Origin: Eledone cirrhosa
Lineage: Eukaryota
Length of the DNA stretch: 64,000 bases
Direction: 5' to 3'
Assembly (NCBI GenBank): GCA_964016885.1
Contig: OZ024761.1
Coordinates: forward strand, 930,001 to 994,000
Under the pieces are notes generated by a model that was not told the origin of the DNA, did no database searches, and saw only the letters and a list, made by a program, of their open reading frames with translations. Below are positions 4,538-59,875 of the stretch, one piece after another (position 1 is the first letter of the stretch; every line of letters starts with the position of its first letter). The translations under genes and the position numbers were made by a program.

Positions 4538-4584
4538 TTTCCTGATGATTTTCTTTGAATGAAACAGTTCTAGTCCTGTAGAAG
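4538..4584 (+). ncRNA. Type I hammerhead ribozyme, family A variant
   Basis: tttc CTGATGA ttttctttgaat GAAACAG ttctagtc CTGTA gaag; preceded by a short inverted copy (GAAATCATCAGGAAA, ~4519-4533). Confidence 0.7.
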
Positions 4585-30758: not shown

Positions 30759-30763
<5 letters not shown>

Positions 30764-31103
30764 AAACGGAACAGAAAATGCTGACAAATTGTTCACAGTG
30801 AAAAATAGTTTAATTAGGAATAAGTGAGAATTAGTAATAGTATTGGTTAGTATTAAGTTTTGGTTTTAAGTTTTACCGGTTGCGCATTTCTAATGCCTTT
30901 TCGTGATGTTTGCTCTGATCAGAGCAAACATCACGGACGCTCTATCTCAAAATTATTTTTGAAAGGCATTAGAAATGCGCAACCGGTAAAACTTAAAACC
31001 AAAATTTAATACTAACCAATACTATTACTAATTCTCACTTATTCCTAATTAAACTATTTTTCACTGTGAACAATTTGTCAGCATTTTCTATTCCGTTTTC
31101 CAA
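30759..31103. repeat. Long inverted repeat (142-bp arms) enclosing a 34-bp perfect palindrome
   Basis: 30759-30900 pairs with 30962-31103 (~2 mismatches). Inner palindrome CGTGATGTTTGCTCTGATCAGAGCAAACATCACG at 30902-30935. Confidence 0.9.
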
Positions 31104-31143
31104 TATATAATAACTTGTGTTACACCTCTATTCTTTTAAGTGT

Positions 31144-31510: not shown

Positions 31511-31683
31511 TAATGGTAGAACACTGGAAGGTAATATCCGTAGTGGTAGAGCACTCAGTCCATGGGACGAGTTAGGTAGAAGTGGTTACACGACAGTTAG
31601 TTCACCATGCCGAGAACAATTGTTTCAGCTTAGCGGATGCTCAGCTCACGAGCTGAGGATCCGCTAAGGTGAAACCACTTCTA
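31511..31683. mobile_element. PLE-type terminal cassette with head-to-head HHR pair (family E)
   Basis: Plus arm: cgag CTGAGGA t cc gctaa gg t GAAAC (truncated). Minus arm: tgag CTGAGCA ... GAA ACAATTGT T ctcg. Flanked by (TA)n. Confidence 0.6.
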
Positions 31684-31739
31684 TATATATATAAGTATGT
31701 ATACGTACATACATACATGTATACAGACGTACAGTAGTA

Positions 31740-31772
<33 letters not shown>

Positions 31773-31894
31773 GTACGAATGGATTCACCGAACATTTATT
31801 ATAATGCTCGGTGTGTTTGTAAACAAACATCCCTAATTAAGCCGTACAGCGTCTAGCAACCATCGTTGCTCATTTGTTCAACACTGACAAAGGA

Positions 31895-31935
31895 ACGCTG
31901 TACTAGTTTCAAGCTATAGTTATCGTCAGCAACGT
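31895..31935 (-). ncRNA. Minimal type I hammerhead ribozyme (retrozyme unit 1)
   Basis: acgttg CTGACGA taactatagctt GAAAC ta GTA cagcgt: helix I 6 bp, palindromic helix III ACTAGT, GUA site; helix II weakened. Confidence 0.8.
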
Positions 31936-32320
31936 ATACCTTCCTGCCAGATGATTGAACGTCTGAGAGTATATACTTTTCTTATGCATATTAACGGCTG
32001 AGTAGCCCAATTTGCATATCGAGTGGGTTAATCGGCCGGGTGCACCGAAAACGATAAAAGGAAAAAATAAAACGAAATTTCATTTCCCACTCTTAGTACG
32101 GCTGTTACTTAAATATAAGTATGTATACGTATATACATATATGTATACAGACGTACAGTAGTATGTATATATATACATACATGCACACATATATATATAT
32201 GTACGTATGGATTCACCGAACATTTATTATAATGCTCGGTGTGTTTCTAAACAAACATCCCGTATTAAGCCGTAGTGTCTAGCAACCATCGTTGCTCGTT
32301 TGTTCAACACTGACAAAGGA

Positions 32321-32363
32321 ACGCAGTACTAGTTTCAAGCTTATTAGTTATCGTCAGCAACGT
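32321..32363 (-). ncRNA. Minimal type I hammerhead ribozyme (retrozyme unit 2)
   Basis: acgttg CTGACGA taactaataagctt GAAAC ta GTA ctgcgt; one helix I mismatch. Confidence 0.75.
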
Positions 32364-32505
32364 ATACCTTCCTGCCAGATGATTGAACGTCTGAAAGTAT
32401 ATACTTTCCTTATGCATATTAACGGCTGAGCAGCCTAATTTGCATATCGGGTGGGTTAATCGGCCGGGTGCCGTTAATATATATATATATATATATAGTT
32501 ATATA

Positions 32506-32543
<38 letters not shown>

Positions 32544-32547
32544 TATA

Positions 32548-32583
<36 letters not shown>

Positions 32584-32587
32584 TATA

Positions 32588-32627
<40 letters not shown>

Positions 32628-32631
32628 TATA

Positions 32632-32669
<38 letters not shown>

Positions 32670-32673
32670 TATA

Positions 32674-32721
<48 letters not shown>

Positions 32722-32727
<6 letters not shown>

Positions 32728-32780
32728 AGTATGCATGTATACGCACATACATATATGTATACAGACGTACAGTAGCATGC

Positions 32781-32811
<31 letters not shown>

Positions 32812-33327
32812 TATACATACAGGTACACATACGAAGAGTGAGAAATGAAATTTCGTTTTCATTTTATTACAACTCATCGTTTTCGGTGCGCCTGACCGAT
32901 TTAACTCACTCGATATGCAAATTAGGCTGCTCAGCCGTTAATTTTCATAAGGAAAGTATATACTTTCGAACGTTCAACTATCTGGCAGATGGGTATACGG
33001 TGCTGATGATAGCTAACAAGCTTGAAACTAGTACATCGTTCCTGTGTCAGTGTTGAACAAAAAGGTGACGTGGTTGCCTTAACACCGTGCGGCATAAATT
33101 CAGGCTGTTCAGTTTGTTTACAAACGAACAAAGCGGGCGCCATAATAAGCGTCCGCTAAACTGATGCGTACATATATGTATGTGTACCTGTATGTATATA
33201 TATATATATGCATGCTACTGTACGTCTGTATACATATATGTATGTACGTATACATGCATACTTACATTTAAGTAAGTGCCGTACTAAGAGTGAGAAATGA
33301 AATTTCGTTTTCATTTTATTACAACTT
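32722..33327 (+). mobile_element. Retrozyme-like element, second subfamily (~450-bp unit plus partial repeat, with 5' inverted segment)
   Basis: Reverse-complement homologue of 31693-32480. AAGAGTGAGAAATG recurs at 32834 and 33286. Segment 32722-32832 is an inverted copy of ~33178-33268. Confidence 0.8.
32997..33039 (+). ncRNA. Minimal type I hammerhead ribozyme (retrozyme unit 3)
   Basis: acggtg CTGATGA t agct aaca agct t GAAAC ta GTA catcgt; predicted cleavage after 33033. Confidence 0.88.
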
Positions 33328-34104
33328 ATATATGTATGTATATATATATATATACAAAATTAAGATAAATTCAATTAATTTAATCTAAATCAAAATTATG
33401 GGTGTCATGCCAGAAAGGCATGCGCCATATCCCCCGGAAAATAAGCTCTAAGATTCTAACGAGTAGGTCCGAGCATTTTATAATAACTAGAAATTGATTA
33501 ACATATATATAAACGTGAATAATCACAGGAGATAATTTTTACAAGTGTGTAACCACACATAGCTAGGTAGGTAACTAACTAAAGTTGACCAGAACTTAAA
33601 AAATAGATACCTTATAATATGATTAATCTTCCCTGTATATATTCCATTAAAGAAATATATTTCACCAATTAATCAGATGGTAAACCACGGAAGTGGAGAT
33701 TTTGGATTTTCAACAAGGATCATTCATGTTTATATATATGTTAATCAATTTCTAGTTATTATATATAACTATATATATATATATAACTATATATATATAT
33801 GTATAACTATATATATATGTATAACTATATATATATGTATAACTATATATATATATATTGTTATACTTTGGGAAGGTCATGTTGCCAATAAGAAACACAT
33901 GCACCAGTTGCTTTCACTTCAATTTATTATATATTTATAAATTTATAAATTTCTGGTTGGTTGGTTGGTTCCACAACCAGATAGTTGTTTATATATAGTC
34001 ATAGTTCTTTCGTTACACTCTGTGACCTCTTCAGTGACTGGGGATTCCTTTCTTTGTTTCTGTGCCTCTCCTTTGAAACAAAATGGCGTAGGACAGAACA
34101 AAGG

Positions 34105-36458: not shown

Positions 36459-36529
36459 TGTTTTATCTGATGAAAACACAAATATTATTGCATGATGATG
36501 TTTGTTTTTGAAATGCGCATAATAAAATA
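36459..36529 (+). ncRNA. Type I hammerhead ribozyme, family B
   Basis: tgttttat CTGATGA [long helix II acaaatat/atgtttgt] GAA ATGCGCAT A ataaaata: palindromic helix III, AUA site. Confidence 0.8.
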
Positions 36530-47654: not shown

Positions 47655-48249
47655 TGCGTGTGAATTTATTATGTTATGTTCAGACTGAAGAATGTGATGT
47701 GAGGGAGATTTGCCTGCTATTTCTAGCAGGTCGAATGACAACATAGAGGCTCCCTCATTGGTTTATGGCCGCTGTGTAGTTGATTGAGTGTTTCAGGGTT
47801 GACGTTGCTGTTATTTCTGCCTAATTAAGAGGGCAGCACCCTGAGCATTTTAAGGACCATGTAACTGGTGGGTGGTTAAGGGTAGGAAGTTACCCCTAAA
47901 TACGAGACCTGGTCACAGATACTTTGCAAGAGAGTGAAACACCCTCGCTTAGAGCACCCCAAGTGTAAACATGACGGGTTAAATCTTTACCACTTCACTC
48001 TGGTGTAATGATGCGGAGGTGTGTTGTGTTGTAGTAGGTTAGTGGTGTACTGGAGGTGTGTTGTGGTGCAGTGGAGGTGTGTAGTGTTGTAGTAGTGCTG
48101 TGGTGGATTGGTGGTGTAATGGAGGTGTGGTGTGTTGTGGTAGATTGGTGGTGTAATGGAGGTATGGTGTGTTGTGGTAGATTGGTGGTGTAATGGAGGT
48201 GTGGTACTTTGTGGTAGATTGGTGGTGTACTGGCGGTGTGTTGTGTTGT

Positions 48250-51200
48250 GGTAGATTGGTGGTGTAATGGAGGTGTGTTGGGGTTCTAGTATTGTTATGG
48301 TAGATTGGTGGTGTAGTGGAGGTGTGTTGGGGTTCTAGTATTGTTGTGGTAGATTGGTGGTGTAGTGGAGGTGTGTTGGGGTTCTAGTATTGTTGTGGTA
48401 GATTGGTGGTGTAGTGGAGGTGTGTTGGGGTTCTAGTAGTGTTGTGGTAGATTGGTGGTGTAATGGAGGTGTGTTGGGGTTCTAGTATTGTTGTGGTAGA
48501 TTGGTGGTGTAGTGGAGGTGTGTTGGGGTTCTAGTATTGTTGTGGTAGATTGGTGGTGTAGTGGAGGTGTGTTGGCGTTCTAGTAGTGTTGTGGTAGATT
48601 GGTGGTGTAATGGAGGTGTGTTGGGGTTCTAGTAGTGTTGTGGTAGATTGGTGGTGTAGTGGAGGTGTGTTGGGGTTCTAGTAGTGTTGTGGTAGATTGG
48701 TGGTGTAGTGGAGGTGTGTTGGGGTTCTAGTAGTGTTGTGGTAGATTGGTGGTGTAGTGGAGGTGTGTTGGTGTTCTAGTTGTGTTATGGTAGATTGGTG
48801 GTGTAGTGGAGGTGTGTTGGGGTTCTAGTAGTGTTATGGTAGATTGGTGGTGTAGTGGAGGTGTGTTGGGGTTCTAGTAGTGTTGTGGTAGATTGGTGGT
48901 GTAGTGGAGGTGTGTTGGTGTTCTAGTTGTGTTATGGTAGATTGGTGGTGTAGTGGAGGTGTGTTGGGGTTCTAGTAGTGTTGTGGTAGATTGGTGGTGT
49001 AGTGGAGGTGTGTTGGGGTTCTAGTAGTGTTGTGGTAGATTGGTGGTGTAGTGGAGGTGTGTTGGGGTTCTAGTAGTGTTATGGTAGATTGGTGGTGTAG
49101 TGGAGGTGTGTTGGGGTTCTAGTAGTGTTGTGGTAGATTGGTGGTGTAATGGAGGTGTGTTGGGGTTCTAGTATTGTTGTGGTAGATTGGTGGTGTAGTG
49201 GAGGTGTGTTGGGGTTCTAGTAGTGTTGTGGTAGATTGGTGGTGTAGTGGAGGTGTGTTGGCGTTCTAGTAGTGTTGTGGTAGATTGGTGGTGTAATGGA
49301 GGTGTGTTGGGGTTCTAGTATTGTTGTGGTAGATTGGTGGTGTAGTGGAGGTGTGTTGGGGTTCTAGTAGTGTTGTGGTAGATTGGTGGTGTAATGGAGG
49401 TGTGTTGGGGTTCTAGTATTGTTGTGGTAGATTGGTGGTGTAGTGGAGGTGTGTTGGGGTTCTAGTATTGTTGTGGTAGATTGGTGGTGTAGTGGAGGTG
49501 TGTTGGCGTTCTAGTAGTGTTGTGGTAGATTGGTGGTGTAATGGAGGTGTGTTGGGGTTCTAGTAGTGTTGTGGTAGATTGGTGGTGTAGTGGAGGTGTG
49601 TTGGGGTTCTAGTAGTGTTGTGGTAGATTGGTGGTGTAGTGGAGGTGTGTTGGGGTTCTAGTAGTGTTGTGGTAGATTGGTGGTGTAGTGGAGGTGTGTT
49701 GGTGTTCTAGTTGTGTTATGGTAGATTGGTGGTGTAGTGGAGGTGTGTTGGGGTTCTAGTAGTGTTATGGTAGATTGGTGGTGTAGTGGAGGTGTGTTGG
49801 GGTTCTAGTAGTGTTGTGGTAGATTGGTGGTGTAGTGGAGGTGTGTTGGTGTTCTAGTTGTGTTATGGTAGATTGGTGGTGTAGTGGAGGTGTGTTGGGG
49901 TTCTAGTAGTGTTGTGGTAGATTGGTGGTGTAGTGGAGGTGTGTTGGGGTTCTAGTAGTGTTGTGGTAGATTGGTGGTGTAGTGGAGGTGTGTTGGGGTT
50001 CTAGTAGTGTTATGGTAGATTGGTGGTGTAGTGGAGGTGTGTTGGGGTTCTAGTAGTGTTGTGGTAGATTGGTGGTGTAGTGGAGGTGTGTTGGTGTTCT
50101 AGTTGTGTTATGGTAGATTGGTGGTGTAGTGGAGGTGTGTTGGGGTTCTAGTAGTGTTGTGGTAGATTGGTGGTGTAGTGGAGGTGTGTTGGGGTTCTAG
50201 TAGTGTTGTGGTAGATTGGTGGTGTAGTGGAGGTGTGTTGGGGTTCTAGTAATGTTGTGGTAGATTGGTGGTGTAGTGGAGGTGTGTTGGGGTTCTAGTA
50301 TTGTTGTGGTAGATTGGTGGTGTAGTGGAGGCGTGTTGGGGTTCTAGTAGTGTTGTGGTAGATTGGTGGTGTAGTGGAGGTGTGTTGGGGTTCTAGTAAT
50401 GTTGTGGTAGATTGGTGGTGTAGTGGAGGTGTGTTGGGGTTCTAGTAGTGTTGTGATAGATTGGTGGTGTAGTGGAGGTGTGTTGGGGTTCTAGTATTGT
50501 TGTGGTAGATTGGTGGTGTAGTGGAGGTGTGTTGGGGTTCTAGTAGTGTTGTGATAGATTGGTGGTGTAGTGGAGGTGTGTTGGGGTTCTAGTATTGTTG
50601 TGGTAGATTGGTGGTGTAGTGGAGGTGTGTTGGGGTTCTAGTAGTGTTATGGTAGATTGGTGGTGTAGTGGAGGTGTGTTGGGGTTCTAGTAATGTTGTG
50701 GTAGATTGGTGGTGTAGTGGAGGTGTGTTGGGGTTCTAGTAGTGTTATGGTAGATTGGTGGTGTAGTGGAGGTGTGTTGGGGTTCTAGTAGTGTTGTGGT
50801 AGATTGGTGGTGTAGTGGAGGTGTGTTGGGGTTCTAGTAGTGTTATGGTAGATTGGTGGTGTAGTGGAGGTGTGTTGGGGTTCTAGTAGTGTTGTGGTAG
50901 ATTGGTGGTGTAGTGGAGGTGTGTTGAGGTTCTAGTAGTGTTGTGGTAGATTGGTGTAGTGGAGGCGTGTAGGGGTTCTAGTAGTGTTATGGTAGATTGG
51001 TGGTGTAGTGGAGGTGTGTTGGGGTTCTAGTAGTGTTGTGGTAGATTGGTGGTGTAGTGGAGGTGTGTTGGGGTTCTAGTAGTGTTGTGGTAGATTGGTG
51101 GTGTAGTGGAGGTGTGTTGGGGTTCTAGTTGTGTTATGGTAGATTGGTGGTGTAGTGGAGGTGTGTTGGGGTTCTAGTAGTGTTGTGGTAGATTGGTGGT

Positions 51201-54200
51201 GTAGTGGAGGCGTGTTGGGGTTCTAGTAGTGTTATGGTAGATTGGTGGTGTAGTGGAGGTGTGTTGGGGTTCTAGTAGTGTTATGGTAGATTGGTGGTGT
51301 AGTGGAGGTGTGTTGGGGTTCTAGTAGTGTTGTGGTAGATTGGTGGTGTAGTGGGTGTGTTGGGGTTCTAGTTGTGTTATGGTAGATTGGTGGTGTAGTG
51401 GAGGTGTGTTGGGGTTCTAGTAGTGTTGTGGTAGATTGGTGGTGTAGTGGAGGTGTGTTGGGGTTCTAGTTGTGTTATGGTAGATTGGTGGTGTAGTGGA
51501 GGTGTGTTGGGGTTCTAGTTGTGTTATGGTAGATTGGTGGTGTAGTGGAGGTGTGTTGGGGTTCTAGTAGTGTTATGGTAGATTGGTGGTGTAGTGGAGG
51601 TGTGTTGGGGTTCTAGTAGTGTTGTGGTAGATTGGTGGTGTAGTGGAGGTGTGTTGGGGTTCTAGTTGTGTTATGGTAGATTGGTGGTGTAGTGGAGGTG
51701 TGTTGGGGTTCTAGTTGTGTTATGGTAGATTGGTGGTGTAGTGGAGGTGTGTTGGGGTTCTAGTAGTGTTGTGGTAGATTGGTGGTGTAGTGGACGTGTG
51801 TGGGGTTCTAGTAGTGTTGTGGTAGATTGGTGGTGTAGTGGAGGTGTGTTGGGGTTCTAGTAGTGTTGTGGTAGATTGGTGGTGTAGTGGACGTGTGTTG
51901 GGGTTCTAGTAGTGTTGTGGTAGATTGGTGGTGTAGTGGAGGTGTGTTGGGGTTCTAGTATTGTTGTGGTAGATTGGTGGTGTAGTGGAGGTGTGTTGGG
52001 GTTCTAGTATTGTTGTGATAGATTGGTGGTGTAGTGGAGGTGTGTTGGGGTTCTAGTAGTGTTGTGGTAGATTGGTGGTGTAGTGGAGGTGTGTTGGGGT
52101 TCTAGTATTGTTGTGGTAGATTGGTGGTGTAGTGGAGGTGTGTTGGGGTTCTAGTAGTGTTATGGTAGATTGGTGGTGTAGTGGAGGTGTGTTGGGGTTC
52201 TAGTAGTGTTATGGTAGATTGTTGGTGTAGTGGAGGTGTGTTGGGGTTCTAGTATTGTTGTGGTAGATTGGTGGTGTAGTGGAGGCGTGTTGGGGTTCTA
52301 GTAGTGTTGTGGTAGATTGGTGGTGTAGTGGAGGCGTGTTGGGGTTCTAGTAGTGTTATGGTAGATTGGTGGTGTAGTGGAGGTGTGTTGGGGTTCTAGT
52401 ATTGTTGTGGTAGATTGGTGGTGTAGTGGAGGCGTGTTGGGGTTCTAGTAGTGTTGTGGTAGATTGGTGGTGTAGTGGAGGTGTGTTGGGGTTCTAGTAT
52501 TGTTGTGGTAGATTGGTGGTGTAGTGGAGGCGTGTTGGGGTTCTAGTAGTGTTGTGGTAGATTGGTGGTGTAGTGGAGGCGTGTTGGGGTTCTAGTAGTG
52601 TTATGGTAGATTGGTGGTGTAGTGGAGGTGTGTTGGGGTTCTAGTAGTGTTGTGGTAGATTGGTGGTGTAGTGGAGGTGTGTTGGGGTTCTAGTAGTGTT
52701 GTGGTAGATTGGTGGTGTAGTGGAGGTGTGTTGGGGTTCTAGTAGTGTTGTGGTAGATTGGTGGTGTAGTGGAGGTGTGTTGGGGTTCTAGTTGTGTTAT
52801 GGTAGATTGGTGGTGTAGTGGAGGTGTGTTGGGGTTCTAGTAGTGTTGTGGTAGATTGGTGGTGTAGTGGACGTGTGTTGGGGTTCTAGTAGTGTTGTGG
52901 TAGATTGGTGGTGTAGTGGAGGTGTGTTGGGGTTCTAGTTGTGTTATGGTAGATTGGTGGTGTAGTGGAGGTGTGTTGGGGTTCTAGTATTGTTGTGGTA
53001 GATTGGTGGTGTAGTGGAGGTGTGTTGGGGTTCTAGTATTGTTGTGGTAGATTGGTGGTGTAGTGGAGGTGTGTTGGGGTTCTAGTTGTGTTATGGTAGA
53101 TTGGTGGTGTAGTGGAGGTGTGTTGGGGTTCTAGTAGTGTTGTGATAGATTGGTGGTGTAGTGGAGGTGTGTTGGGGTTCTAGTATTGTTGTGGTAGATT
53201 GGTGGTGTAGTGGAGGCGTGTTGGGGTTCTAGTAGTGTTGTGGTAGATTGGTGGTGTAGTGGAGGTGTGTTGGGGTTCTAGTAGTGTTATGGTAGATTGG
53301 TGGTGTAGTGGAGGTGTGTTGGGGTTCTAGTTGTGTTATGGTAGATTGGTGGTGTAGTGGAGGCGTGTTGGGGTTCTAGTATTGTTGTGGTAGATTGGTG
53401 GTGTAGTGGAGGTGTGTTGGGGTTCTAGTATTGTTGTGGTAGATTGGTGGTGTAGTGGAGGTGTGTTGGGGTTCTAGTATTGTTGTGGTAGATTGGTGGT
53501 GTAGTGGAGGTGTGTTGGGGTTCTAGTATTGTTGTGGTAGATTGGTGGTGTAGTGGAGGTGTGTTGGGGTTCTAGTTGTGTTGTGGTAGATTGGTGGTGT
53601 AGTGGAGGTGTGTTGGGGTTCTAGTAGTGTTGTGGTAGATTGGTGGTGTAGTGGAGGTGTGTTGGGGTTCTAGTTGTGTTATGGTAGATTGGTGGTGTAG
53701 TGGCGGTGTGTTGGGGTTCTAGTAGTGTTGTGGTAGATTGGTGGTGTAGTGGAGGTGTGTTGGGGTTCTAGTAGTGTTGTGGTAGATTGGTGGTGTAGTG
53801 GAGGTGTGTTGGGGTTCTAGTATTGTTGTGGTAGATTGGTGGTGTAGTGGACGTGTGTTGGGGTTCTAGTAGTGTTATGGTAGATTGGTGGTGTAGTGGA
53901 GGTGTGTTGGGGTTCTAGTAGTGTTGTGGTAGATTGGTGGTGTAGTGGAGGTGTGTTGAGGTTCTAGTAGTGTTGTGGTAGATTGGTGTAGTGGAGGTGT
54001 GTTGGGGTTCTAGTAGTGTTGTGGTAGATTGGTGGTGTAGTGGAGGTGTGTTGGGGTTCTAGTAGTGTTGTGGTAGATTGGTGGTGTAGTGGAGGTGTGT
54101 TGGGGTTCTAGTAGTGTTGTGGTAGATTGGTGGTGTAGTGGAGGTGTGTTGGGGTTCTAGTAGTGTTGTGGTAGATTGGTGGTGTAGTGGACGTGTGTTG

Positions 54201-55215
54201 GGGTTCTAGTAGTGTTATGGTAGATTGGTGGTGTAGTGGAGGTGTGTTGGGGTTCTAGTATTGTTGTGGTAGATTGGTGGTGTAGTGGAGGTGTGTTGGG
54301 GTTCTAGTAGTGTTATGGTAGATTGGTGGTGTAGTGGAGGCGTGTTGGGGTTCTAGTAGTGTTGTGGTAGATTGGTGGTGTAGTGGACGTGTGTTGGGGT
54401 TCTAGTAGTGTTATGGTAGATTGGTGGTGTAGTGGAGGTGTGTTGGGGTTCTAGTAGTGTTGTGGTAGATTGGTGGTGTAGTGGAGGTGTGTTGGGGTTC
54501 TAGTAGTGTTATGGTAGATTGGTGGTGTAGTGGAGGCGTGTTGGGGTTCTAGTAGTGTTGTGGTAGATTGGTGGTGTAGTGGACGTGTGTTGGGGTTCTA
54601 GTATTGTTGTGGTAGATTGGTGGTGTAGTGGAGGTGTGTTGGGGTTCTAGTAATGTTGTGGTAGATTGGTGGTGTAGTGGAGGTGTGTTGGGGTTCTAGT
54701 AGTGTTGTGGTAGATTGGTGGTGTAGTGGACGTGTGTTGGGGTTCTAGTAGTGTTATGGTAGATTGGTGGTGTAGTGGAGGTGTGTTGGGGTTCTAGTAG
54801 TGTTGTGGTAGATTGGTGGTGTAGTGGAGGTGTGTTGGGGTTCTAGTAGTGTTGTGGTAGATTGGTGGTGTAGTGGACGTGTGTTGGGGTTCTAGTAGTG
54901 TTATGGTAGATTGGTGGTGTAGTGGAGGCGTGTTGGGGTTCTAGTAGTGTTGTGGTAGATTGGTGGTGTAGTGGACGTGTGTTGGGGTTCTAGTATTGTT
55001 GTGGTAGATTGGTGGTGTAGTGGAGGTGTGTTGGGGTTCTAGTAGTGTTGTGGTAGATTGGTGGTGTAGTGGAGGTGTGTTGGGGTTCTAGTAGTGTTGT
55101 GGTAGATTGGTGGTGTAGTGGAGGCGTGTTGGGGTTCTAGTAGTGTTGTGGTAGATTGGTGGTGTAGTGGAGGTGTGTTGGGGTTCTAGTAGTGTTGTGG
55201 TAGATTGGTGGTGTA
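48250..55215. repeat. 49-bp minisatellite, ~142 copies
   Basis: Unit GTAGATTGGTGGTGTAGTGGAGGTGTGTTGGGGTTCTAGTAGTGTTGTG; period checked at 48301/48350. Flanked by 37-bp units (48100-48250) and 21-bp units (55216-55450). Confidence 0.97.
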
Positions 55216-56965
55216 GTGGAGGTGTGTTGTGGTGTAGTGGAGGTGTGTTGTGGTGTAGTGGAGATGTGTTGTAGTGTCGTGGAGGTGTGTTGTAGTGTCG
55301 TGGAGGTGTGTTGTAGTGTCGTGGAGGTGTGTTGTGGTGTAGTGGAGGTGTGTTGTGGTGTAGTGGAGGTGTGTTGTAGTGTCGTGGAGGTGTGTTGTAG
55401 TGTCGTGGAGGTGTGTTGTGGTGTAGTGGAGGTGTGTTGTGGTGTAGTAGTGTTCAAGTGAGAGTAATGGAGTGGTGTAGATTATAGCAGAGCTGTGATG
55501 TAGTGGAGTGGTGGTGGTTTAGAGTATTGTAGAGCTCTGATGTAGTGGAGTGGAGATGTAGAGATGTGATGTAGGGGAGTATTGGTGTTGTGGAGTAGTG
55601 GAGTGCTGGTGGAGTGTTTTACGGTAGAGTGGTGTAGTGGTGGTGTTGTAGTGAAGTGAAGCAGTGTTGGTGTAGTGTAGTGTTGTGATGTAGTGTAGTG
55701 GTGTAGAGTTTGTGCCAGAGTGAGGATGCTGTGTGTGATGGTGGTGGTGGTGGTGGTGGTGGTGGTGGTGGTGGTACGGTGTTTATGTGAGGGTTAGGGT
55801 GCCGTGTGTGCATGATGGTAGTGGTGTGGGTGTAGCGATGTGGGTGTGATGGTGAGGGTGCTCTGTGTCTGTGGTGGTAGTGATGGTGCGGTGTTAGGGT
55901 GAGGGTGCTGTGTGTGATAGTGGTGTGGTGTTTGTGTAACGATGAGGATGCTGTGTGATGGTGGTGGTGGTGCGGTATATGTGTGGTGGTGAGGGGTCTG
56001 TCTCTGTGGTGTAATGATACTGAGTGTGTATGTGTATGGTGGAGCGATGTGAGAATGCTGTCTGTCTGTGTGTATATGATGTTTTAATAAGTGTGATGAG
56101 ACTGTGTGCGTGATGGTAGTACTGGTGATTGTATGAATGTAATAGTGCTGTCTGTGTGTGTGTGTGGCGTTTCAGTGTGTAAATGTTATAGTATAGTGTG
56201 ATATCTCAGTCAGTGTATGTATATGTGTGATGTTTGAATGAATGTAATGAGACTATGTGTGTGATGGTAGTGGTGGTGATTGTATAAATGTAATAGTGTG
56301 TGTGTGTTTGTGTGTGTGTGTGGTGTTTCAGTGTGTAAATGTTATAGTAGTGTGGTATCTCAGTCACTGTAATGTTGCTGTGTGTGTGTGTGTGAGCCTG
56401 TGAGGTGTGGTGTTTCAGTTAGTGTACTAGTAGCTCTATAGTAGTATAGTATACTACGCTGTGCTGTGCTGTGACGTATAAGAGTAACGAAGCGAAGGTG
56501 TGGAGTGGAATGGCGAGTGTAGTGTAGTGGAATGGTTACTGTGTGTTACTTACTCGTTGAGTGTAGAAGTGAGTGAAAGCATGAGTGTGTATACGAGTGT
56601 AGACGACCATGAATGAATATCTATCATTACCAGCAATAAAAATATTAACAATAATAAAAAATATTTCTTTTTAGTTTGCCACACGGGCATCGGATAAAAT
56701 CGACAGTATAAAGACGAGTCACATTAAGATGAGGGTTTATATAGAAATGAGAAAAGGGGGGTAGCCTGTATACATAGTATATATACATGTATATTTCCTG
56801 GTAATTTCTTCTTGCAGATATATATATGTATATATAATATATATTATTTCAGTGGAATATAATTCTGGATGGATACAATATTTTGTATACATGTTTGTCT
56901 GTATAGAATGTATGTATATATGTTTATGTAATGTGTATGTACGTATGTGTATATACACACACCTA

Positions 56966-57369: not shown

Positions 57370-57645
57370 AATTGTTTCTACTTTTGGCACAAGGCCAGCA
57401 AATACCCAGTACATTACTGGTACTTTATTTTATCGATATAATAATAATGATGAATAATAGTCACGATTATCTTTATTAATCGGTAAAGATACCAAGACCC
57501 TCTCAGGAATAGAGATCAACTTTGCCTTTCAACCCTTCCGAGGTCGATGGCCGATAAAATAAAGTACCGGTTATGTACTGGTTCGTTATAATCGACTTTC
57601 ATTTCCATTCCTCCTCCTCAAATTGCTGGCCTTGTGCCGAATTAG
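57370..57645. mobile_element. Two partial SINE copies in inverted orientation
   Basis: 57370-57436 (-) and 57516-57645 (+) share CGATAAAATAAAGTACC and TTGCTGGCCTTGTGCC. Confidence 0.8.
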
Positions 57646-57743
57646 AGAAAATAAAAAAAAAAATGTAAAGAGATAAATGAGAGGAAGAGAAAAAAAACAT
57701 GGAGCGACCAAGAATAAGAATATATGGGGAAAAAATGACTTAC

Positions 57744-58039
57744 TTGAAGTTCTGCTCTCTCCACCTCCCACTGAGAACGTTCCATTTCGAATCTTGCCCA
57801 TTCCGTTTGTAAGAAATGTAAAATCCCCGGCATAGAATACTGAGGCCGTTGGCTCGATTCATCAGCTTGTTGTTTGGTAACCATTCCAGCAGCACCAAGT
57901 CCACCAACAACACCACTACTACTACTACTACTACAACCACCAACACCAACACCACTGTAGCTACTACTACTACTACTGCTGTTGTTGTTGTTGTTGTGGA
58001 CGGCGGAAAAGATGACTGGACTAGCGCTACCGCCGTTGA

Positions 58040-58070
<31 letters not shown>

Positions 58071-58229
58071 ACTGCTGCTGCTGATGTTGCTGCTGTTGTT
58101 GTTGTTGTTGTTAATGATGAGACTACTACCACCTCCTACTACCTGGCCACCACCACCAACATCAATAATACTACCACTGCTGCTGCTTCCTTCTCCTCCG
58201 TGTTGTGATCCGAGGCCGTCTTCAATCAT
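57744..58229 (-). CDS. STRN: Striatin-family (STRN/STRN3/STRN4, Cka-like) first coding exon, STRIPAK/PP2A B''' subunit
   Basis: Translation ends ...QYSMPGILHFLQTEWARFEMERSQWEVERAELQ, the conserved striatin caveolin-binding/coiled-coil start. It is followed by a perfect GTAAGT donor (57743-57738), phase 0, 162 codons. The N-terminus is poly-G/S/N low complexity. Paralogue cannot be assigned. Confidence 0.95.
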
Positions 58230-58249
58230 TTTACCATGACCGCCGCCAT
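58226..58249 (-). promoter_or_regulatory. uORF MAAVMVK* whose stop overlaps the striatin ATG
   Basis: Minus strand reads ATG GCG GCG GTC ATG GTA AAA TGA. The TGA overlaps the main start as ATGA. Both upstream ATGs have G at -3 and +4. Confidence 0.55.
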
Positions 58250-58311
58250 TGCACTGGCTTTGCTTTCCTATCCTTCCTGCTACTTAACTCTCGGGCAGCT
58301 TTACTTCACGA

Positions 58312-59704: not shown

Positions 59705-59875
59705 AATCAAAATATATACTTTATTATATATATTTCAAAGGTACTGTGGTGTTTTTTTCAGTACGTCCTCATCAGACAAAATATATGAAATTCATATATT
59801 TTGTCTGATGAGGACGTACTGAAAAAAGCAGCACAGTACCTTTGAAATATATATAATAAAGTATATATTTTGATT
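59705..59875. ncRNA. Head-to-head inverted pair of hammerhead ribozymes (family C): + 59797-59863, - 59717-59783
   Basis: 85-bp-arm palindrome centred on 59790. Each arm reads tattttgt CTGATGA ...gtactg/cagtac... GAA ATATATAT A ataaagta. Confidence 0.75.

Follow-up and report, generated by a model that had tools for sequence, protein, structure and literature searches.

The window, i.e., the whole 64,000-nt stretch analysed here, carries two separate insertions of one non-coding hammerhead repeat within a single (TA)n tract, an older insertion of subfamily B and a young one of subfamily A. Insertion 1 (31693-32476, minus strand) is a single arm of about 1.8 monomers, as delimited by the sequence and the family alignment. 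Its 3' end, on the 31693 side, is the fixed short end of the family (..ACTTA followed directly by TATATA), and its 5' break, on the 32476 side, falls near unit position 73 and abuts the (TA)n. Motif scan and alignment divide this arm into a full monomer, u1 (31693-32113, minus strand, period 426 nt), and a monomer truncated at its 5' side, u2 (32114-32471, minus strand). These two are 93.1% identical across 364 nt, and TRF reports a period of 428 with 2.2 copies. The (TA)n tract itself (32477-32724; sequence and TRF) has palindromic interruptions and is the target common to both insertions.

Insertion 2, resolved by alignment, consists of an inverted left arm of subfamily A (32725-32829, minus strand, 105 nt), which stops at the fixed short end, and a main arm, u3 (32830-33326, plus strand), which holds 1.1 monomers of the young 452-nt subfamily A and stops at the tail end. 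The alignment also places in u3 an internal TA-rich self-complementary segment of variable length that ends at the short-end site (33167-33266, plus strand), from which the length variants of 452 to 520+ nt derive, and a 60-nt tail at the 3' end (33267-33326, plus strand; unit positions 1-60) that is followed by (TA)n. The sequence-only reading had described three homologous units. The homology stands (u3 is about 78% identical to u1 and u2), but the units belong to two separate insertions, and the inverted 105-nt arm beside u3 had been missed.

Several other repeats lie in the window. A second family of type I hammerheads has a loop III of 12 nt and is present at 4580 (+), 25243 (-), 28702 (+) and 35945 (-); it ends about 90 nt past its cut, in (TA)n, and is tandem at another locus too (L155). 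Elsewhere in the genome (L221, G000:C10:48072680-48072786, minus strand), a full-length U6 copy and five T are followed by this second family, and the junction is the base right after its predicted GUA cut, in a two-armed (TA)n insertion. Such a fusion gives one match genome-wide. It looks like the U6/retroelement ligation chimeras described in PMC6789731, and if it is one, it would be a relic of cleavage in vivo in the second hammerhead family. Genome-wide, a U6 fusion at the cut site of the family at 31693-33327 gave 0 matches. Several U6/U6atac retrocopies (L245-L250, L222, L252, L257) are fused 3' to other repeats, three or four of them to the same one. Foldback elements with long terminal inverted repeats (30760-31105 and 31619-31676) adjoin (TA)n tracts, and the first also flanks the U6 fusion at L221. 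Head-to-head hammerheads at 59725 (-) and 59855 (+) are of the type found at Hydra-clade PLE ends, and the pair reads as a tiny two-armed PLE end insertion. Hammerhead-like motifs occur at 36521 (+), resembling the terminal motif of the PLE family in L169-L191, and at 34002 (-), recurring in L061 and L083. The window further contains a 7-kb array (48243-55233) of a 49-nt G/T-rich unit, with 143 copies, 96% matches and extreme strand skew, and a 213-residue low-complexity open frame rich in Gly/Ser/Asn/Gln (57645-58283, minus strand), which is possibly a real exon.

The hammerhead and its repeat family

Each of the three units carries one type I hammerhead. A descriptor scan found the CUGANGA...GAAAC UA GUA pattern that had been claimed, with N17 at 31901 (-), 32327 (-) and 33033 (+), and reproduced the distance of 426 nt between the two minus-strand cut sites. 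The u3 ribozyme (32997-33039, plus strand, predicted cut after 33033) has the majority form, present in 38 of 45 A copies, and folding embeds it in a longer stem from about 32972 to 33058. The u1 ribozyme (31895-31935, minus strand, predicted cut after 31901) has an intact helix I and a weakened helix II, while that of u2 (32321-32363, minus strand, predicted cut after 32327) has a U.U in helix I and an A.C in helix II. The 6-bp helix I described earlier is therefore present in full in u1 and u3 (6/6 pairs) and reduced to 5/6 in u2 by the mismatch. The A.C mismatch in helix II is found in both u1 and u2, loop II of u1 is short by 2 nt, and folding z values of the HHR region are -3.1 for u3, -1.1 for u1 and -1.9 for u2. 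Both minus-strand hammerheads are damaged, and they make up the dimer (32480 to 31693) that had been named for a cleavage assay.

The ribozyme had also been called minimal, and this label does not fit. Its helix I has 6 bp, a bulge and an extension, helix II has 4 bp over a U.U, and helix III has 2 bp with a UA loop, whereas the min-HHRs of PLEs are described as having no helix III or loop 3, 7-8 bp in helix II, 4-5 bp in helix I, and G10.1-C11.1 (PMC4209133). By the definitions given there, it is a canonical-like hammerhead and not a min-HHR. In Rfam, u3 matched only HH9 at 18.6 bits (E 0.043), below the cut-off of 52, and u1 had no hammerhead match. TA-repeat miRNA artefacts dominated the 150 of 382 matches listed when the whole window was scanned, and a repeat search behaved likewise.

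Folding gives mixed expectations for cleavage. Self-pairing of the ACUAGU palindrome is predicted at -6.8 kcal/mol. In the MFE fold of u3, core C3-U4-G5 is paired to the helix III strand, an inactive form that counts against cleavage. Just 1 of 9 predicted retrozyme dimers of Xenopus is reported to have cleaved (bioRxiv 10.64898/2026.07.22.740005), which also counts against assuming cleavage here.

The exact core pattern has 23,432 matches genome-wide and its reversed control 0, so the hammerhead core is not a chance pattern. Together with an own-genome search, this count gives a family more than 23,000 copies strong, which bears out the dispersal that the sequence-only reading had wanted checked; copies intact across the cut site number 25,856 genome-wide. 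The search returned 1111 candidates for subfamily A, the best 40 of the 1111 at 99-100% identity, and 2020 for subfamily B, the best 40 of the 2020 at 93-95% apart from self. The subfamilies are about 16% apart. The base unit is 426-452 nt, with longer variants through TA expansion, and periods of 422 nt and 466 nt occur in the family. Units are arranged head-to-tail without a central region, which is not an LTR-type layout, in arrays of 1 to at least 16 monomers within a single fetched stretch, and no conserved protein frame was found inside the unit.

In the copies compared, the core diverges less than the unit as a whole. Among copies chosen by similarity, 0 of 540 core positions changed in the 45 A copies against 0.63% unit divergence, and core divergence in the B top-match copies is 1.8% against 3.4%. 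The majority sequences of A and B differ at 0 of 16 core and helix III columns versus 56 of 341 columns overall, an invariance that by itself has a chance of about 0.06.

The monomer is strongly self-paired, with a folding z of -5.7 as a linear molecule and -6.6 and -5.3 as circles (66% paired); part of this signal comes from the TA-rich hairpin, and z is -3.5 without it. Across 38 copies, one per insertion, 98.4% of cells are paired over 58 pairs, and 9 of these pairs changed on both sides; they lie in helix I and its extension, in a long-range stem and in a distal hairpin. The covariation suggested for the family thus extends inside and outside the ribozyme, in 38 related copies from which the structure was derived; because structure and test share the same, related sequences, the shuffle result of 0/500 is no probability. 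This covariation reflects few subfamily-level events. The helix I covariation reported earlier is real, but it concerns one pair only (U.G to G.U, 20 versus 14 of 38 copies).

Upstream of the ribozyme, the unit has a candidate promoter. Three independent U6 loci and the U6atac gene of this genome have in common a TATG(C/G)(A/T)AAT..AG block (-77 to -79) as well as GTATAWA (-31); the block is absent from the U2 loci. All three window units carry both U6-like motifs: ATGCAAAT at 32017 and GTATATAC at 31976 form the putative pair of u1 (31969-32019, minus strand), that of u2 lies at 32445 and 32404 (32397-32447, minus strand), and motif comparison places ATATGCAAATTAGG at 32913 and GTATATAC at 32956 in u3 (32913-32963, plus strand). 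Their spacing is 41 nt versus 45-47 in U6, i.e., 4-6 nt closer. From the position of the pair, transcription is predicted to start at the foot of the extended helix I of the ribozyme, in u3 at about 32987-32988 (plus strand), 46 nt upstream of the cut. The motifs diverge by 1.2% and 1.4% compared with 8.3% over the unit, and six other 11-nt windows of the unit are conserved at least as well as the octamer block. The loose promoter pattern, which was defined after viewing the unit, was found in 1 of 20,000 shuffles and at one unrelated site in 200 kb. When whole U6/U2 upstream regions were aligned locally to the sense strand of the unit, they scored no better than shuffles; the match is confined to the positioned motifs. 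Pol III would be expected to terminate at T4-T6 runs inside the unit before it reaches the next ribozyme. Judging from the motifs, we give even odds that the pair is a working U6-type (type 3 Pol III) promoter.

Insertion ends, template and mobilisation

Insertion ends were classified at 54 loci taken in genome order from the core-pattern list and at 49 top-match loci. Fifty-six loci were grouped as two-armed, an approximate grouping since long TA expansions split some insertions, and both ends were classified in 36. All 36 have one short and one tailed end (three tails are partial), and one of the remaining 20 (L050) seemingly has two tails following rearrangement. The tail covers up to about 60 nt (unit positions 1-60). 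The insertions show 5' truncation, partial tandems, an inverted 5' copy, one tailed end and a microsatellite target, and PMC8557442 lists for PLEs (TA)n targets (Hydra clade), 5' truncation, partial tandems, an inverted 5' copy and a tail at one end.

An autonomous young PLE coexists with the unit in this genome. Its family has 3287 candidates, the best 40 of the 3287 at 97-100%, and an uninterrupted frame of 736 residues. The protein motifs (RWK-like, DKT, CxCX5C, CxxC/CxH) would place it in the Hydra clade as defined in PMC8557442 and not among the Neptune elements. Pfam and PDB sequence searches with the protein gave no match, its Atlas neighbours carry HTH_animal and GIY-YIG, and the closest named relative of a PLE protein from the genome is from Argonauta hians (39%), which is suggestive of the cephalopod origin proposed by the sequence-only reading and makes it plausible. 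Both ends of the young PLE were found in 7 of 20 fetched loci, and all 7 pair a short end with a tail, as assigned by the classifier in 5 and by eye in the other 2. Of the 20 8-kb stretches around the young PLE, 5 also contain copies of the unit, where about 0.4 would be expected from the core-pattern spacing. The earlier suggestion of PLE mobilisation thus gains direct support from the insertion ends, with 36/36 short-plus-tail insertions of the unit and the same pairing in the young PLE. In two PLE families the terminal repeats and hammerheads are unrelated to the unit, and as no homologous terminal repeat turned up, the partner PLE is assigned by footprint only.

Two loci at which unit and PLE sequences are joined were considered separately. 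L139 (G000:C1:18487800-18490900) first appeared as a template switch between the two; it is rather a unit inserted in an older PLE remnant, with a target duplication of about 9 bp. This composite has been duplicated as an inverted pair whose arms both stop at the same non-canonical site in (TA)n, possibly by trans-mobilisation of a chimeric RNA. At L003/L061 (G000:C7:32509140), a unit ending at tail position 34 is fused without (TA)n to a 5'-truncated young PLE, and the composite sits in a (TA)n tract flanked by inverted repeats. Short ends are found on both outer sides, which makes two events at least as likely as a template switch, and the locus was left uncounted as support for PLE mobilisation.

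The haplotype test used 19 A and 24 B loci, after six loci and one copy with separate insertions or duplications were left out. Discordance at diagnostic sites within insertions was 3/1547 for A and 125/2435 for B, compared with 34% and 41% between insertions, and across arms it was 1/426 and 11/336, respectively. The monomers of one insertion therefore carry one subfamily haplotype; counting against this, 10 of the 24 B loci show a mixture at one diagnostic site or more.

Copies rarely start at the cut. Just 1 of 140 sampled 5' breaks falls within 5 nt of it, where 4.7 would be expected, in a sample biased by the choice of loci that hold a ribozyme. A genome-wide count free of this bias agrees: 38 matches fit a start at the cut, some of which are single-base deletions, compared with 101 at a control site 10 nt downstream. 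Copy starts are not enriched at the predicted transcription start either, where 5 positions gave 172 matches, many being indels. With 25,856 copies reading through and 38 fitting a start at the cut, the template was a circle or an uncut multimer, and a cut linear monomer was not usual. We consider a circle somewhat the better bet. Loss of the single base N17 was seen at 3 of 10 inspected loci and is not read as a ligation scar, since it is not commoner than indels elsewhere. Marks of RNA editing were not seen among 54 shared private variants (A>G 7 versus T>C 4).

Collectively, these results suggest that the repeat is a non-LTR retrozyme, copied into (TA)n by PLE reverse transcriptase/endonuclease from a probably circular RNA; to this explanation as a whole we assign a probability of roughly 0.78. 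The family is a short, dispersed, tandem and non-coding unit with a type I hammerhead in each copy and a strongly self-paired monomer, and, together with the covarying structure, the retrozyme interpretation offered by the sequence-only reading holds at the sequence level. In the mechanism that we propose, a tandem copy would be transcribed, perhaps from the internal U6-type promoter about 46 nt before the cut. Two hammerheads, probably paired via the ACUAGU palindrome, are predicted to excise a monomer of 426-452 nt, which a host ligase might then circularise. A PLE enzyme, likely of the Hydra clade, would nick the (TA)n site, and the footprints suggest that each of the two DNA ends primes cDNA at a fixed point of its own in the RNA, the two points lying about 60 nt apart. 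The copies themselves show the outcome: both arms extend across the cut site, several monomers long at most, with one subfamily haplotype and a junction at a random inversion point.

The strongest alternative retains the same element and PLE enzyme and takes uncut linear multimeric read-through RNA as the template, with a slow or incidental ribozyme and no circle in transposition. The lack of starts at the cut fits this equally well. The arrays of L155 and L047 alternate with a two-unit period, and a period of seven units is seen in L156; these three arrays are not accounted for by a monomer circle alone, and they keep the uncut multimer alive since their periods fit the copying of a donor array. 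PLE-type hammerheads are also described as weak in vitro (PMC4209133), and Naiad PLEs, which lack canonical hammerheads, as forming tandem and inverted structures of the same kind (PMC8557442). However, L154, with 7 monomers over both arms that share 4 private variants and have 3 singletons, and L130 are near-identical throughout and would need a very homogeneous donor. Mean within-array distance is below that to the nearest outside copy in 17 of 49 cases, an uninformative comparison that sets a mean against a minimum. The retention of ribozyme and whole-unit structure across subfamilies about 16% apart also speaks against this alternative, as does the lack of enrichment of copy starts at the predicted transcription start. 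We regard this alternative as possible, though somewhat unlikely.

A more improbable reading takes the unit for a pLTR that became detached from a coding PLE so far undetected, and the arrays for truncated PLE insertions later expanded by unequal crossing-over. In its favour, 24 of 57 Xenopus retrozyme families are reported to match known TEs and 21 of 22 matched TEs are PLEs (bioRxiv 10.64898/2026.07.22.740005); tail and inverted arm are pLTR features (PMC8557442), and the seven-unit period of L156 suggests expansion at the DNA level. The possibility that the unit is only the terminal repeat of a coding PLE had been raised at the outset, and no such case was found among the roughly 100 unit loci, 48 PLE loci and two PLE families sampled. 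About 100 loci have no frame continuing 5' of the unit, and their 5' breaks join flank or inverted arm; the two PLE families here have different hammerheads and no homology to the unit. No sister family that combines this helix III with a different helix II came up in a pattern search (16 matches, 4 of which are mutated units; control 2), and multi-monomer arms on either side of the inversion are of one haplotype. A further candidate, a SINE-like or foldback DNA repeat with a fossil hammerhead that some other retrotransposon or DNA repair would mobilise, would fit the promoter-like motifs and some single-arm insertions outside (TA)n, one with the target duplication of about 9 bp (L139), but it is very improbable given the lack of a poly(A) end, the PLE-like fixed paired ends and inverted arms, and the unchanged core in young copies (0/540 in 45 A copies).

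Beyond the retrozyme interpretation, we tentatively consider a more specific and rather doubtful proposal, a self-contained germ-line RNA-circle parasite that combines a captured U6-type promoter in each unit, positioned to start transcription at the ribozyme stem, and a monomer circle made by ribozyme and host ligase with an unrelated Hydra-clade PLE that primes both break ends on that single circle, 60 nt apart. If true, rolling-circle reverse transcription would have left about 25,000 records in the genome, and everything needed to reconstitute the mobility of an animal retrozyme, namely substrate, promoter and enzyme, would be known.

Comparison with known systems

That PLEs are linked to retrozymes is not a new idea, because a 2026 preprint (bioRxiv 10.64898/2026.07.22.740005) already ties vertebrate retrozymes to PLE terminal repeats. 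Movement by PLE enzymes from a circular template was earlier proposed from coexistence and pLTR similarity (PMC7229834; bioRxiv 10.64898/2026.07.22.740005). The family described here supplies countable genomic footprints: paired ends like those of a young PLE, a single haplotype in each insertion, and copy starts that are not in excess at the cut. As young identical arrays are at hand, such as four identical A monomers at G000:C3:44372061-44373955, and a candidate promoter and enzyme family are named, cleavage, circle and mobilisation are directly testable. With about 25,000 units, this is a sizeable repeat that the octopus repeat annotation of PMC13282606 would not recognise as a ribozyme; the word ribozyme occurs 0 times there, and its species may not be this one. 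The main text of PMC7229834 names no cephalopod retrozyme, and we found none in print in a search that covered the main texts of mostly open-access papers.

Hydra-clade PLEs (Craig et al. 2021, PMC8557442) are described with the same (TA)n targets, 5' truncation, partial tandems, inverted 5' copy, single tail and near-end hammerhead, and that of this genome follows the same short-plus-tail rule as the unit. The unit differs from them in having no ORF, another hammerhead and no sequence homology, and in its tail of about 60 nt, compared with about 90 nt in the PLE of this genome and 30-40 nt in PMC8557442. Newt satellite 2 and the schistosome SM-alpha repeats are likewise tandem hammerhead repeats with an internal promoter just upstream of the ribozyme, which is of snRNA-type Pol II in the newt and Pol III in the schistosome (PMC2220036, PMC6765202). 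The putative promoter motifs of the unit resemble the U6/U6atac upstream elements of its own genome and not those of U2.

The closest likeness is to the metazoan non-LTR retrozymes of coral, mussel and axolotl (Cervera and de la Pena 2020, PMC7229834), which are described as the same few-hundred-base, low-GC, non-coding tandem unit. One type I HHR per unit, thousands of copies, a self-paired monomer and coexistence with PLEs are shared as well (PMC7229834; bioRxiv 10.64898/2026.07.22.740005), and axolotl HHR_Amex2 has a comparable 2-bp helix III and a comparable U.U at the foot of helix II (PMC7229834). Cleavage and circles were shown for those retrozymes (PMC7229834), whereas for our unit they are predictions. 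We found no description in PMC7229834 or bioRxiv 10.64898/2026.07.22.740005 of fixed paired ends, inverted arms or a putative internal U6-like promoter such as the unit has, and unlike the Xenopus retrozymes, for which a homologous pLTR is reported (bioRxiv 10.64898/2026.07.22.740005), none was found for the unit among the loci sampled in this genome. Overall, the unit appears to work like the known animal non-LTR retrozymes, all of whose sequence-level features as given in PMC7229834 it carries.
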